A stretch of DNA of 64,000 bases from positions 45,601-109,600 of IMG/VR virus record IMGVR_UViG_3300042465_007464; one strand, given 5' to 3'. The position numbers were made by a program, and so were the translations under genes. How positions within the stretch are numbered: position 1 is the stretch's first letter; every line of letters starts with the position of its first letter. This document shows positions 1,059 to 62,437 of the stretch, in pieces. Source of the DNA: a virus. The notes under the pieces are model-generated. The model made no database searches, was not told the DNA's origin, and saw only the letters and a program-made list of their open reading frames with translations.

Positions 1059-1562
1059 TCAAATAGCTTCTGGTGCCGGTGCTTCTGGTTGTGGACGTTG
1101 TCCTCTTACATTGAAACGAAAATGTTTAATTTCTGGCACTTGTGCAACGTATCCTTGAATCTTTTGTGATTCGCGTCCTGGATCTTCTCCTAAACGAAAA
1201 TAGAAATATCCTACTTTACCTGATTTAGATATGTTTTGTTTAACTATAGTAAATCCTTTTCGTTCTGACCAATCTCGTATATCATTTGCAACGTTTTGTG
1301 CCATTGACGGATCTCGCAATACATATTCAACTCCTCCGCGATAATCTGCAATATGATTAACAAGTTGTGCTTCGTCTATTTCAGATTCATTAGCTGTTAT
1401 TCTAACATTACCACCGGCTTTCTTTGCAGCCACTTGTGCTGCAGTTAATGCATTTTTATCTTTTGCAACAGATGCCGCTATTTCAATATCGTTTGGATTT
1501 TGTTTAGTAGTTTGTTCTGTTATTCCGAAAAATTCTTTATATAATTTTTTTAGTGCATTCAT
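1059..1562 (-). CDS. Hypothetical virion/head-associated protein
   Basis: ORF; the likely start is ATG 1562 (AAGGT upstream, promoter directly upstream) rather than 1595. Confidence 0.6.
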   Translation of the reverse strand: MNALKKLYKEFFGITEQTTKQNPNDIEIAASVAKDKNALTAAQVAAKKAGGNVRITANESEIDEAQLVNHIADYRGGVEYVLRDPSMAQNVANDIRDWSERKGFTIVKQNISKSGKVGYFYFRLGEDPGRESQKIQGYVAQVPEIKHFRFNVRGQRPQPEAPAPEAI

Positions 1563-1604
1563 TTTATTACCTTTAATATAAATAAAAAGATTCAAACATC
1601 CAAA

Positions 1605-1978: not shown

Positions 1979-2611
1979 TTAAATTATTCTGCATTTACCG
2001 TCTTCGCATAAAATTGAAGTAATAAGTTCATTTACACGTGCGTATTTGTTTGTTTTAACTGTTTTATCTACTGACTCGTGCATGTGCGTAGGCCGCATAA
2101 AAGCCCCATGCGTTGAAGGATTTGATACAAAGTCCCAACATATCAATTCAAAGTCTTCTTGAACTTCAACCGTACCCTCACTGCGTAATTCTTTTACGGA
2201 ACCTAATCCACGGGATGAAATGCCTAATGTGATACCAGCTTTAAAAAGTTCTTTAAGAATTTTTCCTGACGGAGTTTCTAGTATTTGTACTGCTCCTTTT
2301 AAATCATCACCATCCCACCATATTTTTAGTACATTATGAGATACGTTGTTCAAGTTTACTACGGAAGATTCTGGATGATCCAATTCTCCTAGTGCACGAT
2401 GCTGTTGTATGAATTCTTGTTCATATCGTCTACATTCGCGTTCTAGTATGTTTCTTGGATAGATTCTACCATTTTGATTTTTTGCTCCCGCACGTTGTAA
2501 AACTCCTTGAACTACAAAACCACCAGGTATCCCATATGCAGCCCCACTCGATTCAGTAAGTGAACCAATCGGACGAAATGGCATATATTCTACTATTAGT
2601 TGTTTTGACAT
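1979..2611 (-). CDS. Prohead core protease (T4 gp21-like)
   Basis: NQNGRIYP, ALGELDHP, GISSRGLGS and DFVSNPST motifs. Confidence 0.93.
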   Translation of the reverse strand: MSKQLIVEYMPFRPIGSLTESSGAAYGIPGGFVVQGVLQRAGAKNQNGRIYPRNILERECRRYEQEFIQQHRALGELDHPESSVVNLNNVSHNVLKIWWDGDDLKGAVQILETPSGKILKELFKAGITLGISSRGLGSVKELRSEGTVEVQEDFELICWDFVSNPSTHGAFMRPTHMHESVDKTVKTNKYARVNELITSILCEDGKCRII

Positions 2612-2612
2612 A

Positions 2613-3350
2613 TTATTCTCCTAATGCTCTTACGCGTTCCGATATTTTGACTAATCGTTCTGATATTGTTGATAATGCTTTTTTAGTTCGTGCTCCATAT
2701 GAAGATGCAGCTACACCAGATTCTGTTTTTAATCTTGCGTTATGTTTTACTAGTTCATCAATTTCTTGAAGTTTTTTAGCAATTTCTTGAATGGTGCGAT
2801 TCACTTTTTTATCCGGCGATACGTCTTTATCTGCCGTTGCAAATGACCGATAACCTTCAATCAATTCCTCATATTTACGTTCCATAACATCTTCTACTTT
2901 CAAAGCAGATATTTGTTTGCGAACTCCATGTTGTGGTAAATTTCCTATGCGAGTTGTGTTGTCTTCAATATTGTTCGTACCTTCACCATCCGGATAATAT
3001 TTTACCGGAAACTCTTGATCCGATTGCCACCAATATGATGCATCTGGCGAAAAGGGAAACTTATCATTGAAAATTTCTTCATCTGACTCAGGCGCTTGAT
3101 GTCCCGTTGTTTTCCAATCAAATGTCGGTTTAACATTTATAGATTCGTAACGTGCTTCTTTACCTCGCCATTTTCCTGGTTTAGCAAATGCAGCCGGCGT
3201 ATTGAATCCAGCAATGGCACCCGTTACATTTTGTTCGTCAATTTCTTCTTCATCGCAAACACACTTATCCATAGGACGATCACATGCATCGCAATATGAA
3301 TCTTCTATTTCATGGAATCGTTCTTTCATTTCACGTAATATTGACTTCAT
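2613..3350 (-). CDS. Hypothetical head-associated protein
   Basis: 245-aa ORF coupled to the protease gene. Confidence 0.6.
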   Translation of the reverse strand: MKSILREMKERFHEIEDSYCDACDRPMDKCVCDEEEIDEQNVTGAIAGFNTPAAFAKPGKWRGKEARYESINVKPTFDWKTTGHQAPESDEEIFNDKFPFSPDASYWWQSDQEFPVKYYPDGEGTNNIEDNTTRIGNLPQHGVRKQISALKVEDVMERKYEELIEGYRSFATADKDVSPDKKVNRTIQEIAKKLQEIDELVKHNARLKTESGVAASSYGARTKKALSTISERLVKISERVRALGE

Positions 3351-41506: not shown

Positions 41507-42529
41507 TTATCCTAAAATCAATGGTGTTGCGTGACAATCGATGCCTACATTCAATAACGCTTGTTCTTTTGCTTTAGCTTCGATAACAACGTCAAGTGCA
41601 TCGACACCGTAAGTGTCAGGTAATGATAAAATGAAGTCGGCATGAGCCTGCTCCTTGATCTTGCTAAATTCTTTGTACATCTTAGCAAATGTCGGCCATT
41701 TCGGTAAATCGTCCCATGCAATATTATGCTTGTCGCAAATGCCTTCGATAAGACGTTGTGCTTCGCGTCGACGAGACTCGCTGTAATGAGTACACTGCGT
41801 AACACCATGCCGTTGCCAAGTCTCACGTGCCATGAAAAATGCTTCTTGTTCTGACAAATCGCCGGTATTGAATGTATGATGCCAATAGTCAAATGTAATA
41901 GGAATAGCAATATCAGCGTGTAACATTTCATACAAGTCACGCACCGAATACATAGATGCTTTGTCGTCATTTTCTATAACGAGACGACTCTTACATGAAT
42001 CTGATAATCTATCCCAATTGCGTAACCATCGTGCAATAGTCGATGTCTTATCGCCGTAAGTCGCACCTACATGTATGTTGATCTTGTTCTCGAAACTAGG
42101 AGCAAAACCCATAAGGTCAAACATCTCGCTATGGCGTTCTAAACCAATGATAGAATTGTCAACTACTTTGGCATCGGCACTACCTAAGATATGAAACGGA
42201 CCAGGATGCGTAGTAACGCGATGACCATGCGCACGTGCATAATCACCTGCCGCACGAAGATGTTTAGCAATTTCATCGATACCTGGCAAATCTTCTAACC
42301 GATAATGATTCCAACGCGGAAACAATTCGCTACCAATACGGAACAGTCGAATATCGTGCTGTTCGTTCCACTGCAAGATAGGCAGCAAGTCACGTGCATT
42401 TGCTAAAGAAATGTCAGAAGCAAGTTGCAAACCACCAAGCTGAAATTTGCGGTCAATCATTGTGCGACCCGTACGGATCTTTTGTTCACTCAACTGCATA
42501 TTGATGCAGGCATAACCATAACGTATCAT
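41507..42529 (-). CDS. uvsE: UV-damage endonuclease (UvsE/UVDE)
   Basis: GYACIN, LFRIGSELFP, HPGPF, INIHVG, RLVIENDDK, FDYWHH, EAKAKE. Confidence 0.92.
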   Translation of the reverse strand: MIRYGYACINMQLSEQKIRTGRTMIDRKFQLGGLQLASDISLANARDLLPILQWNEQHDIRLFRIGSELFPRWNHYRLEDLPGIDEIAKHLRAAGDYARAHGHRVTTHPGPFHILGSADAKVVDNSIIGLERHSEMFDLMGFAPSFENKINIHVGATYGDKTSTIARWLRNWDRLSDSCKSRLVIENDDKASMYSVRDLYEMLHADIAIPITFDYWHHTFNTGDLSEQEAFFMARETWQRHGVTQCTHYSESRRREAQRLIEGICDKHNIAWDDLPKWPTFAKMYKEFSKIKEQAHADFILSLPDTYGVDALDVVIEAKAKEQALLNVGIDCHATPLILG

Positions 42530-42629
42530 AGACTTTTTTTATAATATAAGAAATAAAATGCAATAATCCTAATTTCGGCGATTTTTAATGCGTATATATT
42601 TATATGAAAGAAACCTTTAAGGATATGCA

Positions 42630-43310
42630 ATGAAAATTAATTTAGCAGAAAATTTGCTTCGTTTTGGAGTAAAAAATTTATCGGAATCTGATTACGAAAA
42701 AATACAAGAACAAACTGCTGCAAAAATATCCATAGCACCAATTAATGTATCGCGTAAGTTTGGAACAAGTGCAACCCCAGTCGTTATTAATGATTTGGAA
42801 GGATATTTAGGCGTACGAACAGATAAAGGTGCTGAATATTGGTTTCCATCTGGAAAAGTAGTTACATGTATTGGCAGTAATGATATATTTAATTTATTAA
42901 TAGGTCCTGCAGGTGTTATTAATGATACTGTATATACACCAAAGTATGAATTATTAGTAATGGTTATTGCCTTAGGGAATGCTGTAAATTCTATGAAACA
43001 AGCAATAGCAAATAATACTGCAACGGGAACAAAACAAGCAGAGGTATCAACTATGAAAGCTAGATCGATAGCAACTTTCGATTTAACGAAAAAAATGAAT
43101 AATACGCCTTACGTAGCAGCATTTATTTTAAAACTATTACAAATTGATATGGAACTAAGACAATCGGTAGATAAAGTATTACTACCAAAAGTTGTTGATA
43201 TCATCAATCTTTTAAATCAAATAGGCGTATATTCAAATACAATTAATATTGATACGGACAAACAAACAATTGACAATTTTTTTATAAAAATGGGTGGAAA
43301 ATTAGTTTAA
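42630..43310 (+). CDS. Hypothetical protein with MKINLAENLLRF leader (cassette 1)
   Basis: Late motif TATTTAT and AAGGA upstream; N-terminus shared with 43790. Confidence 0.7.
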   Translation: MKINLAENLLRFGVKNLSESDYEKIQEQTAAKISIAPINVSRKFGTSATPVVINDLEGYLGVRTDKGAEYWFPSGKVVTCIGSNDIFNLLIGPAGVINDTVYTPKYELLVMVIALGNAVNSMKQAIANNTATGTKQAEVSTMKARSIATFDLTKKMNNTPYVAAFILKLLQIDMELRQSVDKVLLPKVVDIINLLNQIGVYSNTINIDTDKQTIDNFFIKMGGKLV

Positions 43311-43321
43311 TCACCCACCCA

Positions 43322-43663
43322 TTAATGTGTAGAATTAAAATAATATTGTTCAAGTTTATTTTCCTTGAATGCATTATTAATATCAGTTAATCCGGTAATA
43401 AATCCCATTTCGGAATCTTCTGAATATATTTCAATAATTACATCAGAAACAAACGTTGTAGTATCATTCCAAACTATACTTTTAATAACATATCCATTTA
43501 CAGAATATTTTGCTTTAATGATATCAAAAAATTGAGCAACGTGAATATAATCGCTATTTAACGGAACTACGATACCTAAATCATTTGAATTATATGATTC
43601 GCGATCTTGACTAAATACAATACCACTAACTAAAACTGCTACGATTACAATTAACTTTTTCAT
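43322..43663 (-). CDS. Secreted hypothetical protein (cassette 1 partner)
   Basis: Signal peptide MKKLIVIVAVLVSGIVFS-Q. Confidence 0.7.
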   Translation of the reverse strand: MKKLIVIVAVLVSGIVFSQDRESYNSNDLGIVVPLNSDYIHVAQFFDIIKAKYSVNGYVIKSIVWNDTTTFVSDVIIEIYSEDSEMGFITGLTDINNAFKENKLEQYYFNSTH

Positions 43664-43789
43664 CTCTCTTTATTTAATTGGTTTCTATATTATAAAAATA
43701 AGGAAAAAATCAGTACGATCCAACCTTTTTACTAACTTTAATGAAAGTTTTTTTATTGATATTTATATGAAAGAAACCATAAAGGATAC

Positions 43790-44416
43790 ATGATGAAAAT
43801 TAATTTAGCAGAAAATTTGCTTCGTTTTGCACCAAAAAACTTGGATGCTAAAACTATCGAAAAAATACAAGAATTGGCAGAACAAACTGCAACTACATCT
43901 AACATACCGGCTAACGTAGCACAAATTCCAAATTGGAAAACTGTAGCCACGTGGTTTAAAACAAATGCACACGATAAAGGAATTAAAACTGCCGCTTTAG
44001 CATATGGAGATTTTTTATATCAAGCTGAACCAGCTGGTCAAGATTTTCGTTTATCCGTTTATCAAGCACAACAATGCCAATATGGCACATTCCCATTTAT
44101 AGCATTACAACGTTATGCAGATTTAAGTACCGATGGAATGGGAAATATTAAAGATGCAGAAACAACGCCAATGCAAGCACTAGTTAGTTTGCAAAATGTA
44201 TCCAATCAAGTAAGTGCCGGTATACAAGAAGTTAATGATAATTGGAATAATAGTATACCACAAACAAATACAGCCGTTGCACGACAACATATAAAATTAA
44301 GAAAACCTGCATTACAAAACACGATTAATGTTATAAAACAACAATCGAATTTAGCTGAAATAGGTAGCAAATTAACAGGTACTGCTAAAGGTGCATACGA
44401 AGAAATAATTTCATAA
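43790..44416 (+). CDS. Hypothetical protein with MKINLAENLLRF leader (cassette 2)
   Basis: Same upstream region and leader as 42630; unrelated body. Confidence 0.7.
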   Translation: MMKINLAENLLRFAPKNLDAKTIEKIQELAEQTATTSNIPANVAQIPNWKTVATWFKTNAHDKGIKTAALAYGDFLYQAEPAGQDFRLSVYQAQQCQYGTFPFIALQRYADLSTDGMGNIKDAETTPMQALVSLQNVSNQVSAGIQEVNDNWNNSIPQTNTAVARQHIKLRKPALQNTINVIKQQSNLAEIGSKLTGTAKGAYEEIIS

Positions 44417-44437
44417 TATTATTGTATAAACAGTATG

Positions 44438-44468
44438 AATGGGGTAGCTAAAAACTACCCCATTTTTT
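44438..44468. terminator. Terminator hairpin between convergent genes
   Basis: aatggggtag-ctaaaa-ctaccccatt followed by a T-run on the + strand. Confidence 0.8.
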
Positions 44469-45001
44469 TATTTATTAGTTAATAATTCTGTAACTCCTTC
44501 GAAATTTGTAAAAAATATAATCGATCCAAATCCACCTTTACCTCGTGCAATGTATACTTCTAAAATATCAATTGATTTTACATTTGATTTTTTATCATTA
44601 ACTTCGATATGTGCAAAGTTTACGATTTTTTCATGTTTCGTACTAACAGCTCCAAAAGCAAATGCCGTCGCATCTTCTAAAACTTTATCGGAAAAATAAG
44701 TTTCGAAACTTAATACTTGATTGGTATCGGGTAACGTTTTAAATCTATATGGAGCCCAATTAACAAATTTTGCATATTCGCTTCTAAGTTCTTTAGAGAT
44801 ATCTGAGTTAGGACCTGCAGGTAAACTATCAACATAACCCGATTCAACTAAATATCTATCATGCGAACCTATATAAAATATGTCATATCGATTCAAAAAA
44901 TCAATTTGTGAAAAAAAGATAGCTTCATATCTTTGATCAATGTTCTGTGCATTAACAATGCCACTAACTAAAACTGCTACGATTACAATTAACTTTTTCA
45001 T
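44468..45001 (-). CDS. Secreted hypothetical protein (cassette 2 partner)
   Basis: Signal peptide MKKLIVIVAVLVSGIVNA-Q. Confidence 0.7.
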   Translation of the reverse strand: MKKLIVIVAVLVSGIVNAQNIDQRYEAIFFSQIDFLNRYDIFYIGSHDRYLVESGYVDSLPAGPNSDISKELRSEYAKFVNWAPYRFKTLPDTNQVLSFETYFSDKVLEDATAFAFGAVSTKHEKIVNFAHIEVNDKKSNVKSIDILEVYIARGKGGFGSIIFFTNFEGVTELLTNK

Positions 45002-45092
45002 CTCTCTTTATTTAATTGGTTTCTTATATTATAAAAATAAGGAAAAAACCAATACAATCCAACCGAATCATAAAAAAAGTTTCGAAAAAGTT

Positions 45093-54524: not shown

Positions 54525-54836
54525 GCCTAAGACTTCTAGGGTGACAGGGGTTACTAGGGTGGCTAGGGTGACAGGAGCGCTCCTAGGACTTCTAGGGTGG
54601 TACAGAGTGGGTATGGCTCAGCCATATACAATATAGAAGCAAGGTTGTCCCAAAAAAATCTCCCCGTGCAAGGAAAACATATATAACCACTCCATCCAGA
54701 CCAGGGGGTCTACACCCCCTTAACGAAACCCTCCCCCACCCCCTGGTTTTGGGGGGGCTAACGGGGGTCAAAGCAAGGGGGGTCACCCATGAAACGAGGG
54801 GGGCATTTACACCCCCCATCACTACCCCTTAGGGCT
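54525..54836. other. GC-rich non-coding region with CTAGGGTG repeats and G/C homopolymer tracts
   Basis: ctagggtg x4; G5-G7 runs at 54751-54803; C5-C6 runs. Confidence 0.7.
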
Positions 54837-54850
54837 TATGCTTGATAATG

Positions 54851-55069
54851 CTATGCGGTCTCCACTGTCTCTAACAGGTCCTTAACGGATTGCAATGCTA
54901 CCTTCGCACCATACTGGATAGCCATTTGCATTAGGATGATGTCCATGCTGCCTTGGTTTGCTAGGGCAAATGCTTGCAATGCCTCTAGGCTCTCTGGTGT
55001 TGCTACGAAGCCTCTGTCTAGGCCTTTCAACTCTGCTGCTACAAATTCTTTTACGTCTACTGCTTTCAT
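54851..55069 (-). CDS. Early hypothetical protein
   Basis: Own promoter and AAGAGAGA start motif. Confidence 0.65.
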   Translation of the reverse strand: MKAVDVKEFVAAELKGLDRGFVATPESLEALQAFALANQGSMDIILMQMAIQYGAKVALQSVKDLLETVETA

Positions 55070-55135
55070 TGTCTCTCTTTTTAATTTATATAAATATAAT
55101 GAATTAATCGGTGCGTGTCAAGCCCTTTGTGTATA

Positions 55136-55369
55136 TTATGCTTCTTGATTGATTTGTTGAAGTACTTCGGCTGCTTCTACATTATCCGGAAGCGTGTTGT
55201 CCATACCAATTTTCAATTCATGCATCAACTCATATACTGCTGAATAAGATGCGCGACAACTCTTAGTGAATGCGTGGTCTGCGCCGAAGTCGCGAGTTGC
55301 CTCTTTTAATGTTAACCATAACCGCGCCTCTTGTTTTTGGATCCCTTGGATCATTGCTGCTTTTGTCAT
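55136..55369 (-). CDS. Early hypothetical protein
   Basis: 77 aa; AAGAGAGAT-ATG. Confidence 0.65.
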   Translation of the reverse strand: MTKAAMIQGIQKQEARLWLTLKEATRDFGADHAFTKSCRASYSAVYELMHELKIGMDNTLPDNVEAAEVLQQINQEA

Positions 55370-55392
55370 ATCTCTCTTTTTATATTAGGTTA

Positions 55393-55524
55393 TTACTTAC
55401 TCTTAATAATTGCATCTAATTGTTGTTTCAATTGGTCGATGTCTTTCTTAGTTAATTTAGTGATTTTCAGGTTAGCTGCTGCTGCTTTGAAATCGAAAAA
55501 AGCTTTTGGATCAATTTGTTTCAT
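55393..55524 (-). CDS. Early small protein (43 aa)
   Basis: Manual translation MKQIDPKAFFDFKAAAANLKITKL...; AAGAGAGAAC-ATG. Confidence 0.6.
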   Translation of the reverse strand: MKQIDPKAFFDFKAAAANLKITKLTKKDIDQLKQQLDAIIKSK

Positions 55525-55644
55525 GTTCTCTCTTTTTTTAAATTAATGCTTAGGGCCTTTCCCTAATTGCTATACATAAAGATAAGAATAATCGCAATAC
55601 AAACCTAATCTTTTTGCAACTTTTTTTAACTTTTTTTACAGTAG

Positions 55645-55670
55645 AAAACCGACACCATCGCTGATGCCGG
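55645..55670 (-). terminator. GNRA-loop terminator after the AAA gene
   Basis: CCGGCAUCA-GCGA-UGGUGUCGG-UUUU. Confidence 0.75.
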
Positions 55671-55695
55671 ATCCTTATTTGAGAGATATGTTCGC

Positions 55696-56646
55696 TTATT
55701 CTGCGGCGATGATTTGTTCTGCTACCATCTCCTCTACATTGTCAAAGCCCATTGCACATATTCTTGCCGCTTTGATGAAGCTTCTAAGGTTGATGTCAAC
55801 TCCTCCAAACTTAGCATCCAAGCTTTTCATTACATCCAATGCTTGACGCTTAGCCGCTACCGGTATGGTTGGCTCCATAGACTCAAGCAATTGCTCCATG
55901 CGTTGGAACATTTGCGTGGTGTTCATTGTTATGTCTGCTACAAAGCTACGGCTTCGGATTGCTGCATCCAATTTGCTTTGGCTGATGTTGCTGACAAAGA
56001 TTATTTTGCCGGTAAACTCAAAGTGTGCTGGGATCGGTTCACCAAACTCATCTTTAAGGGGCTTGGTAGAGATATAAGATATCTTGCGAGTGTCATAGCT
56101 ATCCAAAGCCGCTTTGAGGATGTTAACCGCATCGTCGTCTTTGAATACAGAGTCACAGTCATCCAACACTACTATCTTGTCGGAGTTTTGGTACAAGGTA
56201 ATAAACAAGCCGGCTGCGGTAGCTTTGCCTTTGAAGTGCTCAAACTCGTAAGACTCTCGCAATCCCATCGCCTTAAGTGTCTCCTTAACCAAGTGCGTCT
56301 TACCTACACCTGCCATACCCGTGATAACCAAAGAGGGTTGGATCCCACGTCCTACCATCTTAGTAAGGCGCTCCAAGTTACCAAACATTACTTGTGGATC
56401 TCTGCTATCCAATACGGAAAGGAAAGACATTTTGCTTGGAGCTGCCGGTGCCATTGTTACACCTGCTTGGTCCGCTGCTACTCGCGTTACTCGGCCGTTG
56501 CCATTAACCATTAGCACTTCGCGGTTCTTCTCTGCGTTCAATAGCTGAACGTGACGGATTAGATCCTTTGTTGCAAACTCTCCGGTTTTGATGTTCTTCG
56601 CCATCAATTTTCCTTTTACTCTTACTGGTTCAAATACATTTAACAT
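55696..56646 (-). CDS. AAA+ family ATPase
   Basis: GMAGVGKT Walker A; VVLDDCD Walker B; NILKAALD; AIRSRS. Confidence 0.85.
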   Translation of the reverse strand: MLNVFEPVRVKGKLMAKNIKTGEFATKDLIRHVQLLNAEKNREVLMVNGNGRVTRVAADQAGVTMAPAAPSKMSFLSVLDSRDPQVMFGNLERLTKMVGRGIQPSLVITGMAGVGKTHLVKETLKAMGLRESYEFEHFKGKATAAGLFITLYQNSDKIVVLDDCDSVFKDDDAVNILKAALDSYDTRKISYISTKPLKDEFGEPIPAHFEFTGKIIFVSNISQSKLDAAIRSRSFVADITMNTTQMFQRMEQLLESMEPTIPVAAKRQALDVMKSLDAKFGGVDINLRSFIKAARICAMGFDNVEEMVAEQIIAAE

Positions 56647-56719
56647 ATCTCTTATTTTTTAATTATAATATAAATTTAATGAAATTATCCGTGCGTGTCA
56701 AGCCCTTTGGCAACTTTTT

Positions 56720-56848
56720 TTAAACTTTTTTCATGTCGTGGAAAACTAGGATTCCTGCTGGGATCAACCCTAATAGACCTAAGTCATTACCAAATGCTAC
56801 TAGTACCAATCCGATCCCTAATGCTAATGCTGTCAATGTTGTTCTCAT
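56720..56848 (-). CDS. Early small membrane peptide (42 aa)
   Basis: Manual translation MRTTLTALALGIGLVLVAFGNDLGLLGLIPAGILVFHDMKKV; own promoter. Confidence 0.6.
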   Translation of the reverse strand: MRTTLTALALGIGLVLVAFGNDLGLLGLIPAGILVFHDMKKV

Positions 56849-56930
56849 ATATCTCTCTTTTTAATTTATATAAAGATAAGGATATTATCCGTGCGTGTCA
56901 AGCTTTTTTGAAACTTTGTTTAAACTTTTT

Positions 56931-57095
56931 TTATCCGAAGAATCCACCCGCAGTCAGGATCCAAATTAAGATTGCAGTGTCAATTAAACCCATAAACAAG
57001 TTATGTCGTCCCTCGCGAGGCTTACCGTGCAAGAAGGATACTAACAACAATTGGATCCCTAATAAGGTTAATAAGATAATTTGTGGTGTTCCCAT
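56931..57095 (-). CDS. Early small membrane protein
   Basis: Start MGTPQIILL at AAAGAGAT-ATG; two hydrophobic helices. Confidence 0.6.
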   Translation of the reverse strand: MGTPQIILLTLLGIQLLLVSFLHGKPREGRHNLFMGLIDTAILIWILTAGGFFG

Positions 57096-57174
57096 ATCTC
57101 TTTGTTTTAGATTGTTTCTCACGTCCGCATGGGCCAACATTTCTGCTGGCCCGGGACTATGTTGAGAGATATGT

Positions 57175-57549
57175 TTACTCTGTTAATGTTGCCTCATATT
57201 GTTCATCGCTGTCATCAACAATTTCAAAGCATCTGTCTAAGGCATTTTGGATGGCATCAAAGATGTTGTCACTCTCGACGTCGACATTTACCAACCTTAC
57301 TGTGTTGTGATAATCCATTTCAAACTCAGCTGATGACAAAGCAACAACGTCATCATTGTCCATGTTATTGATTGCGGATTCAATCACATCACCGATTGCA
57401 TCAAACATTGATTGCGTCATGCGCAACTCTGTCTTTGTCACTACCTCAGGATCCAAGCCTTGGATAAGTGCAATCACATTGTCAATTGATACTACTGAAG
57501 TCAACGCCTTTGCTGCTTCTAACTGTGCTACTAATTCTTCTTTTCTCAT
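57175..57549 (-). CDS. Early acidic hypothetical protein
   Basis: 124 aa; own promoter. Confidence 0.65.
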   Translation of the reverse strand: MRKEELVAQLEAAKALTSVVSIDNVIALIQGLDPEVVTKTELRMTQSMFDAIGDVIESAINNMDNDDVVALSSAEFEMDYHNTVRLVNVDVESDNIFDAIQNALDRCFEIVDDSDEQYEATLTE

Positions 57550-57633
57550 CTCTCTTATTTTTTAATTATAATATAAATTTAATGAATTAATCGGTGCGTG
57601 TCAACCGTTTTGACAACTTTTTTTAAACTTTTT

Positions 57634-57840
57634 TTACAGGCCGGAAAACTCCCCATCAACAAACAATAATGCTTCTCCGGAGCCTAATCCATCCACGCAT
57701 ACATTAAAGTATCCGTCATTGGCATCCATAATGTTGTCCTGGTCTAGGATCTCGGTAGCTACTCGTTTGCTGTCCATCAACTTCATGAAGTCTGATGCGT
57801 TGAGGCTACTTGCTGCTTTGATAATTTGATTTCGTGTCAT
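57634..57840 (-). CDS. Early hypothetical protein
   Basis: 68 aa; own promoter. Confidence 0.6.
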   Translation of the reverse strand: MTRNQIIKAASSLNASDFMKLMDSKRVATEILDQDNIMDANDGYFNVCVDGLGSGEALLFVDGEFSGL

Positions 57841-57924
57841 ATCTCTTATTTTTTAATTATAATATAAATTTAATGAATTAAATGATGCGTGTCAAGCTTT
57901 TTTGAAACTTTTTTGAAACTTTTT

Positions 57925-58011
57925 TTAATTAAACAATTCAACATAAATTATTGCGTCAATCGCCAAAGTTGCTTGGCATACAATCATCTGGATTTTTTTT
58001 ATCTCTTTCAT
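57925..58011 (-). CDS. Early micro-peptide (28 aa)
   Basis: MKEIKKIQMIVCQATLAIDAIIYVELFN; own promoter and AAGAGAT-ATG. Confidence 0.45.
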   Translation of the reverse strand: MKEIKKIQMIVCQATLAIDAIIYVELFN

Positions 58012-58089
58012 ATCTCTTAATTTTATAATATAAAGATAAGCAAAATAACCATGCGTGTCAACCGTTTCGGCAACTTTGTTTGAAAAAAG

Positions 58090-58830
58090 TTACAGGTACT
58101 GAGCCAATAACTCAATACCCGGTAAACTTGCCAATGCCGTCTCTGCCTGTCGAACTAATTGTCTTGCACGTTCATTCGTCACATTCATCTCCTCAGCAAT
58201 TTGATCCATGCATTGTGCATACTCTCGTCCGATCCCGTAGAATCTCTCCAATGCTTCGCGTTGCTTTGGTTTAAGCATACTCATAGCACGTTGCAAATCG
58301 AATTGCATATCTTGCACGTCACGGCGTGATACGGTGCTATCCGCAGCCAAGTAACGATCCGCATAGGTTTCTTTGTTCTCGTCGTCACCTACCGGAGTGG
58401 ATATGCTTTTGGTGCTATACTCCTCAGTAGCCGTACGGTGGCTTGGGATCCTTACTGTGCGGGACATATCATTCAATGCCTTTTGCAACTCGGCACGGAT
58501 ATACCATACCGCAAAGGTAATGAACTTAACGCCTTTGGTTGGATCGTAACGTTCAGCGGCTTCAAACAAACCTACATTACCAAACCCAATGAGATCCTCC
58601 AATTCCAAACCCATTCCCTGATACTGTCGTGCTACTTGGATAACGAATCGCAAATTGCTTTCCACCAACTCATTGATTGCACGTCGGTCTCCTTGCTGTG
58701 CGCGTTCTCCTAATACGATCTCTTGTTCTCGAGTCAATGTGCCTGCCTTGCGCACTTCTTGCATGTATCTTACTGTAGACTCTGCTGTGGCTACTACTGC
58801 GCCGGTTGTGATGAATTTTCTTTTTGACAT
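58090..58830 (-). CDS. RNA polymerase sigma70-family factor (RpoD/RpoS-like)
   Basis: NLRFVIQVARQY, EDLIGFGNVGLFEAAERYDP..G.KFITFAVWYIR, region 4 ERARQL. Confidence 0.92.
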   Translation of the reverse strand: MSKRKFITTGAVVATAESTVRYMQEVRKAGTLTREQEIVLGERAQQGDRRAINELVESNLRFVIQVARQYQGMGLELEDLIGFGNVGLFEAAERYDPTKGVKFITFAVWYIRAELQKALNDMSRTVRIPSHRTATEEYSTKSISTPVGDDENKETYADRYLAADSTVSRRDVQDMQFDLQRAMSMLKPKQREALERFYGIGREYAQCMDQIAEEMNVTNERARQLVRQAETALASLPGIELLAQYL

Positions 58831-58872
58831 ATAACTCTTTTTTAATTAATAAAACGTAACCAATGCAACCGA

Positions 58873-59070
58873 CTACTTGCCGGTTGCTAAGAATTTAAAA
58901 CTTACTCTTACTGGAGCGGTTTGCTTTGCGACATACTCTGCCTTTCTTTTACCCAACTCAATTGCTTGTGCTACGGTTGTGGTATTACCTCCGGTTCTTG
59001 CGTCTTTAGACATTTGTGCCATTACCGCTCCTTGTCTTTCAAATCCTGAATTTCTTTTTCCTTTTGCCAT
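58873..59070 (-). CDS. Early small basic protein
   Basis: 65 aa; own promoter. Confidence 0.6.
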   Translation of the reverse strand: MAKGKRNSGFERQGAVMAQMSKDARTGGNTTTVAQAIELGKRKAEYVAKQTAPVRVSFKFLATGK

Positions 59071-59169
59071 ATCTCTTATCTTTTTAATTATAATATAAAT
59101 TTAATGAATTAAACCATGCGTGTCAAGCATTTTTGAAACTTTTTTACAACGGATCCAATACTATTGGGT

Positions 59170-59391
59170 TCACATTTCTAATGAGTCAATCACTTGGTTC
59201 CATGCATCGGTTTGCTTTGCTTCTCCCTCTGCATTTAGAATGAATCGAAAATTAAAATCTGCATTAGGATTGATTACATAATGTTTGCCATTGTCAGCTT
59301 GAATTAAAAGCATTTCATGATTATACATTTCAGTAACGGTACCAAATAGAACTTCGTTAACATTTAATAAATTTGTGAATTTTACTCTCAT
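59170..59391 (-). CDS. Early hypothetical protein
   Basis: 73 aa; own promoter. Confidence 0.6.
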   Translation of the reverse strand: MRVKFTNLLNVNEVLFGTVTEMYNHEMLLIQADNGKHYVINPNADFNFRFILNAEGEAKQTDAWNQVIDSLEM

Positions 59392-59474
59392 ATCTCTCTT
59401 TTTAAATTAATACTTAAATATAATAAAAAAAGGGATGCGTGTCAAGCATCCCGGTAACTTTTTTCAAACTTTTT

Positions 59475-59732
59475 TTAATAATGCGGATTAACAAAGTCGA
59501 TCCCAATAGCTTTGTAATACACAGCCAATCCTTCAACCAACCTTTCTTCCAAGCCATGCTCAAGATGTTTTTCAATTTCAGCCACCATTACCTCATTGTC
59601 ATCGCAAACCTCTTCTGCAACATGGATCCCTTCGAATTCCAATTCACCATTCTCACCACCCGAGTAGTTCACTTCCAATTCAACCATCATTCCATTCAAT
59701 TGAACTGTCAATCCATAAATTACACCTTCCAT
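59475..59732 (-). CDS. Early acidic hypothetical protein
   Basis: 85 aa. Confidence 0.6.
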   Translation of the reverse strand: MEGVIYGLTVQLNGMMVELEVNYSGGENGELEFEGIHVAEEVCDDNEVMVAEIEKHLEHGLEERLVEGLAVYYKAIGIDFVNPHY

Positions 59733-59753
59733 ATATTTGTTTTTAATTTGTTA

Positions 59754-59948
59754 CTACATTTCGCCTTCAACAACGTCAGTTACTGTAAAATAAGCTACCC
59801 GTTCTATAAAATCAACAACGTCTTCCGGCTCAAAGCCTTCAACATTAATAAGATCCTCAGCAATTGCCTTAATTGCTTGTTCCAATTTTTCCTGTGCCAT
59901 AGTGGGAGTTAAACCCAACATTCTGTCAAATGCTTCCATTGATACCAT
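59754..59948 (-). CDS. Early acidic hypothetical protein
   Basis: 64 aa; own promoter. Confidence 0.6.
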   Translation of the reverse strand: MVSMEAFDRMLGLTPTMAQEKLEQAIKAIAEDLINVEGFEPEDVVDFIERVAYFTVTDVVEGEM

Positions 59949-60032
59949 AATCTCTCTTTTTAAATTAATACTTAAAGATAATAAAAATAACCGTGCGTGT
60001 CAAGCATTTTGCTAAAAAAGTTTACGGAAAGT

Positions 60033-60305
60033 TTATTCCTCTTCGTCCCATTCATCACATTCGTCGCCATATTCAAAATCCAACTCGTCGATTATGTCTT
60101 CAAATGTGGCACACAATGCTTCGGCTTCTGCGTCTGTGATAGTGGATCCCGCCTGTTCCATGTTCTCGCCATCCAGCCAACGTTCAAATACTTCGGTTAA
60201 GTCGGATTCCGCTAAGCGTGCATCCATAATCTCTAACGCGTCGTCGTTAGCTACATCGGTGAAGTCGTAAATTCTTCCGTAAAGGTCTTGCAATTTTTCT
60301 CTCAT
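60033..60305 (-). CDS. Early highly acidic protein (possible DNA mimic)
   Basis: 90 aa, very D/E-rich; own promoter. Confidence 0.55.
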   Translation of the reverse strand: MREKLQDLYGRIYDFTDVANDDALEIMDARLAESDLTEVFERWLDGENMEQAGSTITDAEAEALCATFEDIIDELDFEYGDECDEWDEEE

Positions 60306-60391
60306 ATCTCTCTTTTTAAATTATACTTAAAAATAATAAAAATAACCGTGCGTGTCAAGCATTTTGACAACTTTTTTCGAACTTTTTTTAA

Positions 60392-60547
60392 TTAAAATTC
60401 AACAAAGTCTATTGCCATTTCTCCGATACCCTTTCCGTCACGGGTAATCTCATAATTGGGATCCATACCGGAAATCATGATGTGGGCGATAAGGTCTCCT
60501 ATCGTCGGAAACTCTGCTGTGTAATAATCACAATTTAAACTATACAT
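60392..60547 (-). CDS. Early small protein (51 aa)
   Basis: Manual translation MYSLNCDYYTAEFPTIGDLIAHIMISGMDPNYEITRDGKGIGEMAIDFVEF. Confidence 0.65.
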   Translation of the reverse strand: MYSLNCDYYTAEFPTIGDLIAHIMISGMDPNYEITRDGKGIGEMAIDFVEF

Positions 60548-60606
60548 ATCTCTCTTTTTAAATTAATACTTAAAGATAAGGTTTATAAAGTTAGGATCCT
60601 AATTTT

Positions 60607-61005
60607 TTAGGAGAAAAGTTTCGAAAATGTTTCTGCTCGTTTTAAGCATTCAAATTTGCCGGAATCATTCTTTCCCCATATTTCAGCTTTGCCGGAATGA
60701 CTACATTTGGGAATTACTGTGAATAAAACTTCGTTCTCGTTACATATGCGGAAATCGTCATACAACGGTCCTTGACCCGGACAATTATTCTTAAAGAACA
60801 CATATGTCTCTAGGATGTCAATCTCCGGATTTGCTGCAATAAACTTTTTTACCTTAGGGAATAACACATTTGCTTTACGCTCCAATGATGAATCTTTGCA
60901 AAACCAATCATAAAAGTTAAAACAATCATTTTGATCTCCTTCGCTGTCAATTATTCTTCCTGACGCAAATGCATTCAACTGTTCTGCTAAACTTACTTTT
61001 TTCAT
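60607..61005 (-). CDS. Early hypothetical protein
   Basis: 132 aa; FYDWFCKD, YVFFKNNCP..GPLYDDFRIC. Confidence 0.65.
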   Translation of the reverse strand: MKKVSLAEQLNAFASGRIIDSEGDQNDCFNFYDWFCKDSSLERKANVLFPKVKKFIAANPEIDILETYVFFKNNCPGQGPLYDDFRICNENEVLFTVIPKCSHSGKAEIWGKNDSGKFECLKRAETFSKLFS

Positions 61006-61085
61006 AACTCTCTCAATTTATAACATGTTGTGGGAATATTCCCTTCTTATTAATACTTAAAGATAAGGATAATAAAGTTAGGATC

Positions 61086-61280
61086 CTAATTTATTTGCAA
61101 CTTTTTTTGCAATCTTTTCAACTTTGTTTTAAGCTTATTACGCTCCAACTTGCGAAAGTAATTGCCGTGGTTATACGGAGTGCATCCGTCGGGTTGAGCA
61201 AATGCACTAACCCATTTTGTGGTATCCGTCTTTAGGAATTCCAATCTTGCTTCAATAGCTTTAATTTGTTCTTGTATCAT
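61086..61280 (-). CDS. Early hypothetical protein
   Basis: 64 aa; own promoter. Confidence 0.55.
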   Translation of the reverse strand: MIQEQIKAIEARLEFLKTDTTKWVSAFAQPDGCTPYNHGNYFRKLERNKLKTKLKRLQKKLQIN

Positions 61281-61526
61281 ATCTCCCTTTTAATTTTAAT
61301 AAAGATAAGTATAATAATGATAGGATCCTAATTTTTTGGCAACTTTGTTTGAACTTTTTTCAACTTGAAAAAACAGCCCGTCATATAAAGATAAGTATAA
61401 TAATGATAGGATCCTAATCTTTTCGAAACTTTTTTCAAACAAAGTTAAGGGAATTATAACCGACTATTTCTATTATGGCAGACTCGCCTCGGTTTATTTT
61501 TTTAACTTCCCTTTAACTTTGTTTTG

Positions 61527-61628
61527 AAGTCGGGACAGGATTTGAACCTGCATGGTGGAGACTATTATTCGATCTTATACACTCCACCTTATCTTCCTTC
61601 GACAGCGTTACCATTCCGCCTCCCGACT
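61527..61628 (-). ncRNA. tRNA-like RNA (Leu-type acceptor/D/T arms, non-canonical anticodon region, long extra arm)
   Basis: AGTCGGG/CCCGACT acceptor; GGCGGAATGGTAACGC D-arm; GCAGG-TTCAAAT-CCTGT T-arm; GGTGGAG/CTCCACC extra stem; no CCA. Confidence 0.7.
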
Positions 61629-61640
61629 CGAGGTTGCTGG

Positions 61641-62021
61641 CTAATTAAAGCCAACAAACCCTTTTTCCAATTTTATATCTAAATCCTCCACCATTTCCTT
61701 TAAACGGTAATAAGGAGCGGCTTCCAATTCATCTTCGAATATGTCACATATTCTTTCAATTGTGTAACCAAATCCATATCCGCAAATAGTAACGGCTTTC
61801 TGAATGGCAATCATTTCGTCGGATGCACATTCCCAATCCAATTCAGACAATTCGCCATCTTCTTCATCCAACTCAGCTTCTGCGGCATCCAATGCATCCA
61901 TCCACAGACTATAAATTGCATTCTTTACTATCTCAGCCACTGCATCATTGTGGTCATACATTTCGCGGCTCCAAGGTTTAACAATTTGGGTCCCGTACTC
62001 TACTTTTGGTTCTTTTTTCAT
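61641..62021 (-). CDS. Early acidic hypothetical protein
   Basis: 126 aa; own promoter. Confidence 0.65.
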   Translation of the reverse strand: MKKEPKVEYGTQIVKPWSREMYDHNDAVAEIVKNAIYSLWMDALDAAEAELDEEDGELSELDWECASDEMIAIQKAVTICGYGFGYTIERICDIFEDELEAAPYYRLKEMVEDLDIKLEKGFVGFN

Positions 62022-62092
62022 ATCTCTTATTTTTTTATATACTTAAAGATAAGTAAAAAAGAGATGCGTGTCAAGCATCTCCCTAACTTTTT

Positions 62093-62347
62093 TTAAACTT
62101 TTTTTGCATCCGTAACAAGCTTGTTACGGAGCTTGTCTACTAACTTTTTAAAATTAGTAACTGCATCCCAATTCCCGGTGTCTATGGGAGCTGTTAACCC
62201 GAAATACCCGTCGGGAGCGTAATGCATATTAAGCAACTGCATACGCGGACTTGCTTTGCGCAATGCTACTTGTTGTGCTGCTACACGTGCAGCTACTTGC
62301 TTAAGCTCTACATCTGTAAGCAATGTGACATTAAAACTTTCTTGCAT
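62093..62347 (-). CDS. Early hypothetical protein
   Basis: 84 aa; own promoter. Confidence 0.6.
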   Translation of the reverse strand: MQESFNVTLLTDVELKQVAARVAAQQVALRKASPRMQLLNMHYAPDGYFGLTAPIDTGNWDAVTNFKKLVDKLRNKLVTDAKKV

Positions 62348-62437
62348 ATCTCTATTTTTAAATTATACTTAAATATAATAATAAAAAGCACGCGTGTCAA
62401 GCAAAATGCAAACTTTTTTTAACTTTTTTTTTACAGC

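Follow-up and report, generated by a model that had tools for sequence, protein, structure and literature searches.

The locus described here lies at positions 42,596–45,064 of a 64,000-nucleotide stretch of viral DNA (the window), which forms the 3′ 64 kb of the 109.6-kb IMG/VR viral contig IMGVR_UViG_3300042465_007464 (estimated completeness of the contig, 65%). It is comprised of two tandem units, each with a plus-strand gene (A1 or A2) that starts with a conserved leader and a convergent minus-strand gene (B1 or B2) that starts with a predicted signal peptide; nearly all genes of the window are found on the minus strand. A first-pass annotation of this DNA had described two tandem convergent units with conserved outer ends and unrelated interiors, and all of these elements were found where it had placed them, by repeat analysis, BLASTP, and hhalign. 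Its description of the A genes as the only credible plus-strand genes is accurate for open reading frames (ORFs) of at least 200 residues in the window, and a few short plus-strand ORFs (61–143 residues) also exist.

Unit 1 opens with a late-type promoter box, ATATTTATAT (42596–42605), which together with an AAGGA ribosome site occupies 42596–42629 (plus strand) and is followed by A1 (42630–43310, plus strand), encoding a protein of 226 residues with an ORFan body and a predicted mature pI of 9.1. The A1 leader, residues 1–27 (nucleotides 42630–42710), contains the tripeptides L-A-E at 5–7, L-S-E at 17–19, and I-Q-E at 25–27. A hairpin, GGGTGG...CCACCC (inverted repeat I9, 43289–43323), sits between A1 and the convergent B1 (43322–43663, minus strand; 113 residues), an ORFan that begins with the signal peptide MKKLIVIVAVLVSGIVFS followed by Gln and has an acidic mature part (pI 4.4). 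The 5′ end of B1 belongs to the first copy of a repeat (43617–43725, minus strand), made up of the signal-peptide codons, the AAAGAGAG-ATG start region, and a GGTTGGA...TATAAT promoter-like region. Unit 2 has the same layout, with a late-type promoter box (43759–43768) and AAGGA site (43759–43792 in all, plus strand) preceding A2 (43793–44416, plus strand; 207 residues, or 208 when counted from the ATG at 43790), the leader of which spans residues 1–30 (nucleotides 43793–43882) with L-A-E at 5–7, I-Q-E at 25–27, and L-A-E at 28–30. A bidirectional terminator-like hairpin, flagged on both strands (44437–44465), separates A2 from B2 (44468–45001, minus strand; 177 residues), which has the signal peptide of B1 (…SGIVNA followed by Gln) and an acidic α+β body, and the unit closes with the second repeat copy (44955–45064, minus strand), the counterpart of the first. 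A perfect 18-nt inverted repeat, TTTTTATAATATAAGAAA, was also observed at 42536–42553 (plus strand) and 45020–45037 (minus strand). A B-type −10 region lies upstream of A1 and points toward it, so that A1 may also have a non-late promoter.

The two units are alike only at their outer ends. Nucleotides 42596–42679 and 43759–43842 match at 88% without gaps, a region that spans the promoter box, the ribosome site, and the first ∼17 codons of A, and 43617–43709 and 44955–45047 are near-identical when a 1-nt indel is allowed, spanning the signal-peptide codons, AAAGAGAG-ATG, and GGTTGGA...TATAAT. At the protein level, the BLASTP alignment of A1 with A2 is limited to residues 1–45 (E 3e-10) and that of B1 with B2 to residues 1–20 (E 2e-7). 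The bodies gave no BLASTP alignment for either pair, and hhalign returned a probability of 0.1 for the A bodies. As judged from their sequences, the bodies of A1 and A2 are mutually unrelated, as are those of B1 and B2.

A degenerate DNA pattern for LAEN[LM]LRFG, run on IMG/VR, matched 106 stretches containing 114 good in-frame N-terminal leaders in at least 99 distinct proteins, with body lengths from ∼100 to 700 residues. The leader consensus, MK(N/I)xLAEN(L/M)LRFGxKNL...(L/I)xE, covers ∼30 residues and is conserved outside the search pattern, both in the M-K-N-I preceding LAEN and in the K-N-L after RFGx (Lys in 96 of 99, Asn in 98, and Leu in 87). As a control, 596 Gb of prokaryote genomes were searched, where a real leader was found in 1 of the 120 matches listed, on a 3.7-kb contig of a metagenome-assembled genome; since the prokaryote matches are nearly all chance, the tag appears to be phage-specific. 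A tblastn search of 50,697 phage records with A1 and a 28-residue consensus leader produced nothing real, the leader pattern was not found in Flavobacterium phage immuto, and a literature search found no paper containing the leader sequence. The phage studied here has a third leader gene outside the window, on the majority strand (∼G000:C1:20230–20600, minus strand, equivalent to L003:1195–1650), which sits just upstream of a gp32-like single-stranded DNA-binding protein gene and has no secreted partner; its leader has L-S-E followed by Gln and lacks the usual distal site. The same partnerless arrangement, including the gp32-like gene, is found in two other loci (L079 and L083). On a further contig of 40 kb, IMGVR_UViG_3300008267_000155 (L065, L090, and L082), at least three tandem leader genes were observed within ∼10 kb, two of them with secreted partners and the third cut by the locus boundary.

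The convergent arrangement of a leader gene and a gene for a secreted protein extends far beyond the window. Sufficient downstream DNA was available for 95 leader genes; 83 of them converge on an ORF no more than 200 nt away, and six further leader genes precede another leader gene. A signal-peptide-like N terminus was found in 69 of the 83 convergent neighbors and in 55 of the 824 other ORFs of the same loci (Fisher p = 1.5e-54). Within the 109.6 kb of this genome, B1 and B2 are the only clear signal-peptide proteins. Bacteroidota signal peptidase I substrates begin with Gln, and the B signal peptides fit, ending in ...FS or ...NA followed by a Gln that is invariant in 39 partner proteins. 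Two large genes of other loci (L099:2969–3667 and L085:3463–4173), each facing a secreted ORF, start with ...LKQ(I/L)(L/I)LE..GKRLIEAGE, a sequence that may represent another leader type, unrelated to the first, that has I/L-x-E sites and belongs to a similar module.

By BLASTP, 71 A-B pairs fell into 38 clusters of A and 23 of B. In 37 of the 41 cases in which pairs had an A cluster in common (at <90% identity), they had a B cluster in common as well, compared with 3.2 after shuffling, so that the co-occurrence of bodies across related loci, which the first-pass annotation had predicted for matched pairs, is observed well outside this genome. Of 12 independent comparisons, 11 showed B to be better conserved than A (e.g. 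93% versus 31%). A clusters paired with a common B cluster show an excess of weak profile similarity, and those paired with the B2 family align with one another and have a common C-terminal motif, LTGTAK.VYD.IAA; the body of A2 is a member of a ∼205-residue family with this ending. A reverse census of IMG/VR from the B2 family yielded no loci beyond those already collected. The recurrence of the pairing with dozens of unrelated bodies, on ∼100 uncultured phage contigs, looks like the signature of one undescribed functional module.

One close relative of the window, L092, is informative as to how the units are gained and lost. With 90–95% nucleotide identity to the window, it carries unit 1 and is without unit 2, and the one signal-peptide end that it has agrees with unit 1 toward the coding sequence and with unit 2 toward the upstream DNA. 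This hybrid end points to a crossover inside the ∼110-nt repeat, and recombination between the repeat copies would account for the presence or absence of unit 2. The unit 2 pair was also found in L090, with unrelated flanks. The genes flanking the locus are 95–100% identical between the window and L092, with a synonymous divergence (dS) of 0.04–0.17, whereas A1 is 65.5% identical (dS 0.59) and B1 83% identical (dS 0.36), with ratios of nonsynonymous to synonymous divergence (dN/dS) of 0.39 and 0.28, respectively. The divergent tract sets in precisely where the leader stops and finishes inside B1. The earlier proposal that recombination between the conserved ends swaps both bodies together is thus upheld in part: unit 2 has been gained or lost whole via the repeated signal-peptide and promoter end, and a clean joint swap of both bodies is not borne out by the sole allelic comparison, in which the divergent tract ends inside B1 and not at the signal peptide.

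This organization recalls the PeSL cassettes of T4-type phages, in which short repeated regulatory sequences flank ORFans in hyperplastic regions and insertions and deletions among close relatives are accounted for by recombination between the repeats (Arbiol et al. 2010, PMC2839356; PMC4122927). As in PeSL cassettes, a repeated promoter-bearing sequence flanks ORFans, and indels between close relatives are bounded by repeats. The composition of the repeats is different, with promoter, start region, and signal-peptide codons on one side of the unit and late promoter and leader codons on the other, which means that the homology handles reach into coding sequence. Moreover, the hairpin terminators are located at the 3′ ends of the genes, between the paired genes and outside the repeat, with no short composite unit of sigma-70-like early promoter and stem-loop terminator, and the shuffled unit is a gene pair.

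The resemblance to PeSL sites raises the possibility that A and B are functionally unlinked accessory genes that pile up in a hyperplastic region beside uvdE, the UV-damage endonuclease gene adjoining the locus (41507–42529, minus strand; PF03851, E 1.3e-57), and that their co-occurrence reflects linkage alone. An A gene on the minority strand must converge on something, and any two bodies between repeated 5′ ends would travel together. The locus is hypervariable, with repeat-bounded indels as at the PeSL sites of T4-type phages (PMC2839356), and many pairs of the same A family also share flanking genes, so that the co-occurrence is due in part to descent; partnerless A genes, and B families that pair with several unrelated A families, are likewise in keeping with independent accessory genes. 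Linkage, however, leaves unexplained a secreted neighbor in 83% of cases against a background of ∼7%, the restriction of clear signal-peptide proteins in 109.6 kb to the two B genes, and an architecture that persists over 38 A and 23 B clusters with different flanks. We regard unlinked accessory genes as the main rival explanation, rather unlikely but about as probable as the encounter of A and B in the periplasm that is proposed below.

The nature of the A leader is best considered against the type of phage involved. A T4-like head module is present, with portal and large terminase genes and, just upstream of the window, a gp23-family capsid protein gene; sheath, tube, and hub genes are found in the same phage genome, outside the window. 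The closest isolate is Flavobacterium phage vB_FspM_immuto, with a capsid protein identity of 56.5%, and no sequenced phage gave a megablast match to the 8-kb region around the locus. The phage is T4-like, of Flavobacterium-type hosts. A T4-type prohead core serine protease (Peptidase_S77, PF03420, E 8.9e-32) is encoded at 1979–2611 (minus strand) and is presumed to be the enzyme that processes the A leaders. S77 is encoded in all five long leader-bearing contigs tested, which have 1–6 leader genes each, clustered and on the strand opposite to the protease gene.

The T4 prohead protease follows the rule (L/I)xE, with cleavage after Glu. A [LI]xE site was found at +17 to +31 after AEN in 94 of 98 leaders, compared with 1–5% in later windows of equal length, and this distal site coincides exactly with the end of leader conservation, with Gln as the next residue in 54 cases. 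The L-A-E at leader residues 5–7 is also fixed, but this tripeptide belonged to the search pattern. Propeptides with multiple cleavage sites are known (PMC5694885). The predicted mature A proteins are mostly basic (median pI 9.0), and the B proteins have a median pI of 5.2. In T4, the internal proteins IPI–III and Alt have a capsid-targeting sequence that is a substrate of the prohead protease gp21 (PMC3012670, PMC5694885; Repoila et al. 1994 cited there). Like the A proteins, IPI, IPII, IPIII, and Alt are otherwise unrelated proteins of one phage with a common short N-terminal tag that ends in hydrophobic-x-Glu. Three hallmarks of such a sequence were encountered here, with a tag common to three genes of this genome, S77 together with a gp23-type capsid protein, and a protease site that is recognizable at the motif level only.

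The likeness to T4 extends to the layout of the locus. The T4 ipII and ipIII genes have MKTYQEFIAE in common and nothing else, and they are located beside the UV-repair gene denV, so that denV-ipII-ipIII in T4 corresponds to uvdE-A1-A2 here, both loci adjoining a UV-repair gene. In both systems several tagged genes occur per genome, the locus is polymorphic, the bodies are basic, and the phage encodes a T4-type S77 protease. In two further loci (L068 and L076), a leader gene and the uvdE homologue are immediate convergent neighbors; the link between uvdE and the locus of leader genes is thus conserved, in an arrangement unlike that of the window. The A tag differs from that of T4 in its length (∼30 residues versus 10) and its unrelated sequence; when it is compared by eye with MKTYQEFIAE, only ...hydrophobic-A-E is common (ILAE versus FIAE). 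The leader is accordingly best described as a lineage-specific analogue of the T4 tag, not a homologue, to judge from these sequences. Unlike the T4 ip genes, the A genes run counter to the rest of the genome, and each A gene (in a run of them, the final one) is opposed by a gene for a secreted protein, a partner that the T4 ip genes do not have. Taken together, the A genes are most likely T4-style capsid cargo genes with a tag of their own lineage, as their sequences suggest.

It is also conceivable that the leader docks the protein to another part of the virion (baseplate or neck, for instance) or is recognized by a modifying enzyme, the Glu sites serving otherwise. The tag is three times as long as that of T4 and unrelated to it, and the A2 model described below is weakly like a pilin-like helix-plus-sheet arrangement (best Z 4.8, below noise). 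Against this, in 96% of leaders the [LI]xE site falls precisely where conserved sequence gives way to variable sequence, all genomes tested encode S77, and the 1–6 tagged genes per genome have late promoter boxes and basic bodies. Furthermore, proteins of the head module of the same phage start with similar sites, e.g. ...FFGITE followed by Gln in a 178-residue protein. A role other than capsid targeting is therefore improbable.

The promoter regions divide the A and B genes into two classes. The ATATTTATAT 10-mer occurs 12 times in the window, compared with 1.3 expected, and most copies are located 10–25 nt upstream of a start codon, in front of portal, baseplate, or fiber-sized genes and both A genes. 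Close variants are found upstream of the sheath, tube, and hub genes. The 18-mer upstream motifs were not found before other genes, the 10-mer core alone being common. The ribosome site of the A genes is AAGGA, and the B genes are characterized by GGTTGGA...TATAAT together with a AAAGAGAG-ATG start that also marks an array of small early genes at 55–62 kb. Over ∼57 non-identical loci, the upstream frequencies for A and B genes are, respectively, 88% and 29% for the late box, 79% and 0% for AAGG, and 7% and 66% for TATAAT. The earlier suggestion that the plus-strand genes encode virion-delivered proteins gains support from the promoter box of structural genes, the leader, the protease-type sites, and the T4-type protease; that of early periplasmic products for the minus-strand genes agrees with the apparent export of these proteins and with their non-late promoters and start sites. 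In the array itself (54800–62400, minus strand), each small gene follows a near-identical cassette, AAAAAGTTTCAAAAAAGTT ... GCTTGACACGCA ... TATATTATAAT ... AAGAGAGAT-ATG, which looks like a PeSL-type early promoter array.

Collectively, these data suggest that each unit is probably a two-gene module of a T4-like phage, made up of a late, tagged capsid cargo gene (A) and a non-late gene for an exported protein (B). From the motifs described above we infer the following packaging, cleavage, export, and timing. Gene A would be transcribed late, and the ∼30-residue tag would dock its product to the scaffolding core of the prohead, where the gp21-type protease would cut off the tag after Glu and leave the mostly basic cargo in the capsid. 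At infection the cargo would exit with the DNA, as do IPI–III and Alt of T4. Gene B, converging on A from the opposite strand across a hairpin terminator, would be expressed from its non-late promoter and a start site with an early-gene signature, and its small, mostly acidic product would be directed to the periplasm or beyond by a Bacteroidota-type signal peptide. The conserved 5′ ends would act as homology handles by which whole units are gained, lost, or replaced.

Several points weigh against this assignment of late capsid cargo and exported partner. The leader was not found in any sequenced isolate searched, nor in PHROGs, and, apart from the hydrophobic-x-Glu pattern, its sequence is not similar to that of the T4 tag. 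A ribonucleotide reductase gene also has the ATATTTATAT box upstream, so that the box is an imperfect marker, "late" being read from the motif. Signal peptides were called by a home-made heuristic, with no trained predictor. Of the 79 distinct secreted ORFs counted from the B side, 67 are opposite a leader gene and 4–6 more are opposite genes with diverged leaders, in loci that were gathered via the leader and are therefore not an independent sample. Finally, pairing is not obligatory, as the third leader gene is partnerless and some arrays are of the form A-A-B, and a single B family can be coupled to several A families among which no relationship was detected; these data do not bear out a strict one-to-one relation of A and B.

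A classical toxin-immunity (polymorphic effector) pair, in which B would protect the producing cell, is brought to mind by the variable bodies behind conserved ends, the tight linkage, and the opposite predicted charge of the two products, and it is nevertheless very improbable: instead of sharing a compartment with A and lying co-directionally just downstream of it, B is convergent, with a promoter of another class and a signal peptide that A does not have, so that the two would occupy different compartments of the producing cell, and a known toxin domain was found in 0 of 39 A proteins. The reading of A as a tail fiber or adhesin with B as its chaperone was ruled out by the apparent export of B and the protease-type sites on A.

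If A is capsid cargo and B is exported, the two products, A without an export signal and B with one, would be in different compartments of the producing cell and could meet only in the periplasm, when a superinfecting phage ejects its cargo there. T4 Spackle (gp61.3) provides a precedent for this logic, as an early periplasmic protein that inhibits the incoming gp5 lysozyme in superinfection exclusion (PMC7677548, PMC7650644). In both cases an early periplasmic phage protein would await a virion-borne protein of a superinfecting relative, and this compartment logic is the only one by which an exported B could encounter A. The target of Spackle differs, being the lysozyme of the tail spike and not head cargo, and the T4 genes are neither linked nor polymorphic as a pair. 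No lysozyme or other known domain was found in the 39 A proteins, and the A2 model has no lysozyme fold match. The RI protein of T4 lysis inhibition offers a further, purely formal analogy, in which a periplasmic phage protein would detect the capsid contents that a superinfecting phage ejects into the periplasm; no B protein resembles RI. By analogy with these systems, we tentatively suggest that, when a related phage superinfects, B encounters the A-type cargo of that phage in the periplasm and serves either to exclude the newcomer or to sense it. It is a somewhat more speculative step to view the pair as a polymorphic kin-recognition device, in which exported B would bind its cognate ejected A and the newcomer would be blocked or reported in the manner of lysis inhibition, with rivalry between related phages causing A to diversify rapidly and B to follow.

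To our knowledge, T4 is the only phage for which a capsid-targeting route for injected proteins has been worked out, and its cargo genes stand alone. The loci described here point to a lineage of uncultured T4-like Bacteroidota phages with a longer tag of its own and a cargo gene that nearly always has a secreted-protein gene opposite it, in dozens of unrelated families. Capsid-targeting tags and promoter-mediated shuffling are already known; what is new is the widespread occurrence of this 30-residue tag, the convergent secreted-protein gene that almost always accompanies it, and recombination by way of handles made of tag and signal-peptide codons. If the products interact, they would be the first case of head cargo linked genetically to a periplasmic partner, and a concrete candidate for the means by which an infected cell recognizes or rejects a second phage, a matter still open for T4 lysis inhibition. 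If they do not, the locus would still illustrate how conserved coding 5′ ends serve as handles for swaps of gene bodies. In either case, ∼40 new families of probable injected proteins without a known domain are added.

The bodies themselves belong to few known families. None of 39 A representatives matched a Pfam or PHROG family (0 of 39), and neither did any of the four proteins of the window. Among 39 B representatives, six matched CAP, two matched DUF2927, and there were four hits to a PHROG labeled "sporulation protein". Relatives of B1, B2, and A2 are limited to a handful each, with ∼10 full-length relatives of A2 in an exhaustive search, and ESM Atlas was uninformative on A1 and B1. The AlphaFold2 model of A2 (pLDDT 86) consists of a low-confidence two-helix leader, a helix, a four-stranded sheet, and a helical bundle, and that of B2 (pLDDT 78) of a helical half followed by a four-stranded sheet. 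Comparison of the A2 and B2 models with the PDB (Foldseek, VIA-align) gave best E values of 0.1–0.45 and best Z scores of 4.8 and 3.2, respectively, all below noise.

Two proteins of the head module also have N termini of note. A 245-residue protein (2613–3350, minus strand), encoded between the portal and protease genes in the position of a T4 gp67/gp68-type core protein, starts with MKSILRE, near the MKNILAE of the widespread leader. Beside the protease gene, a 178-residue protein (1059–1595, minus strand) starts with MNALKKLYKEFFGITE followed by Gln when read from an internal Met. Its N-terminal site, ...YKEFFGITE followed by Gln, recalls YQEFIAE of T4, and its N terminus is nearer to the T4 tag MKTYQEFIAE than the A leader is. 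With this protein, the phage may possess another, T4-like class of head cargo or core proteins.

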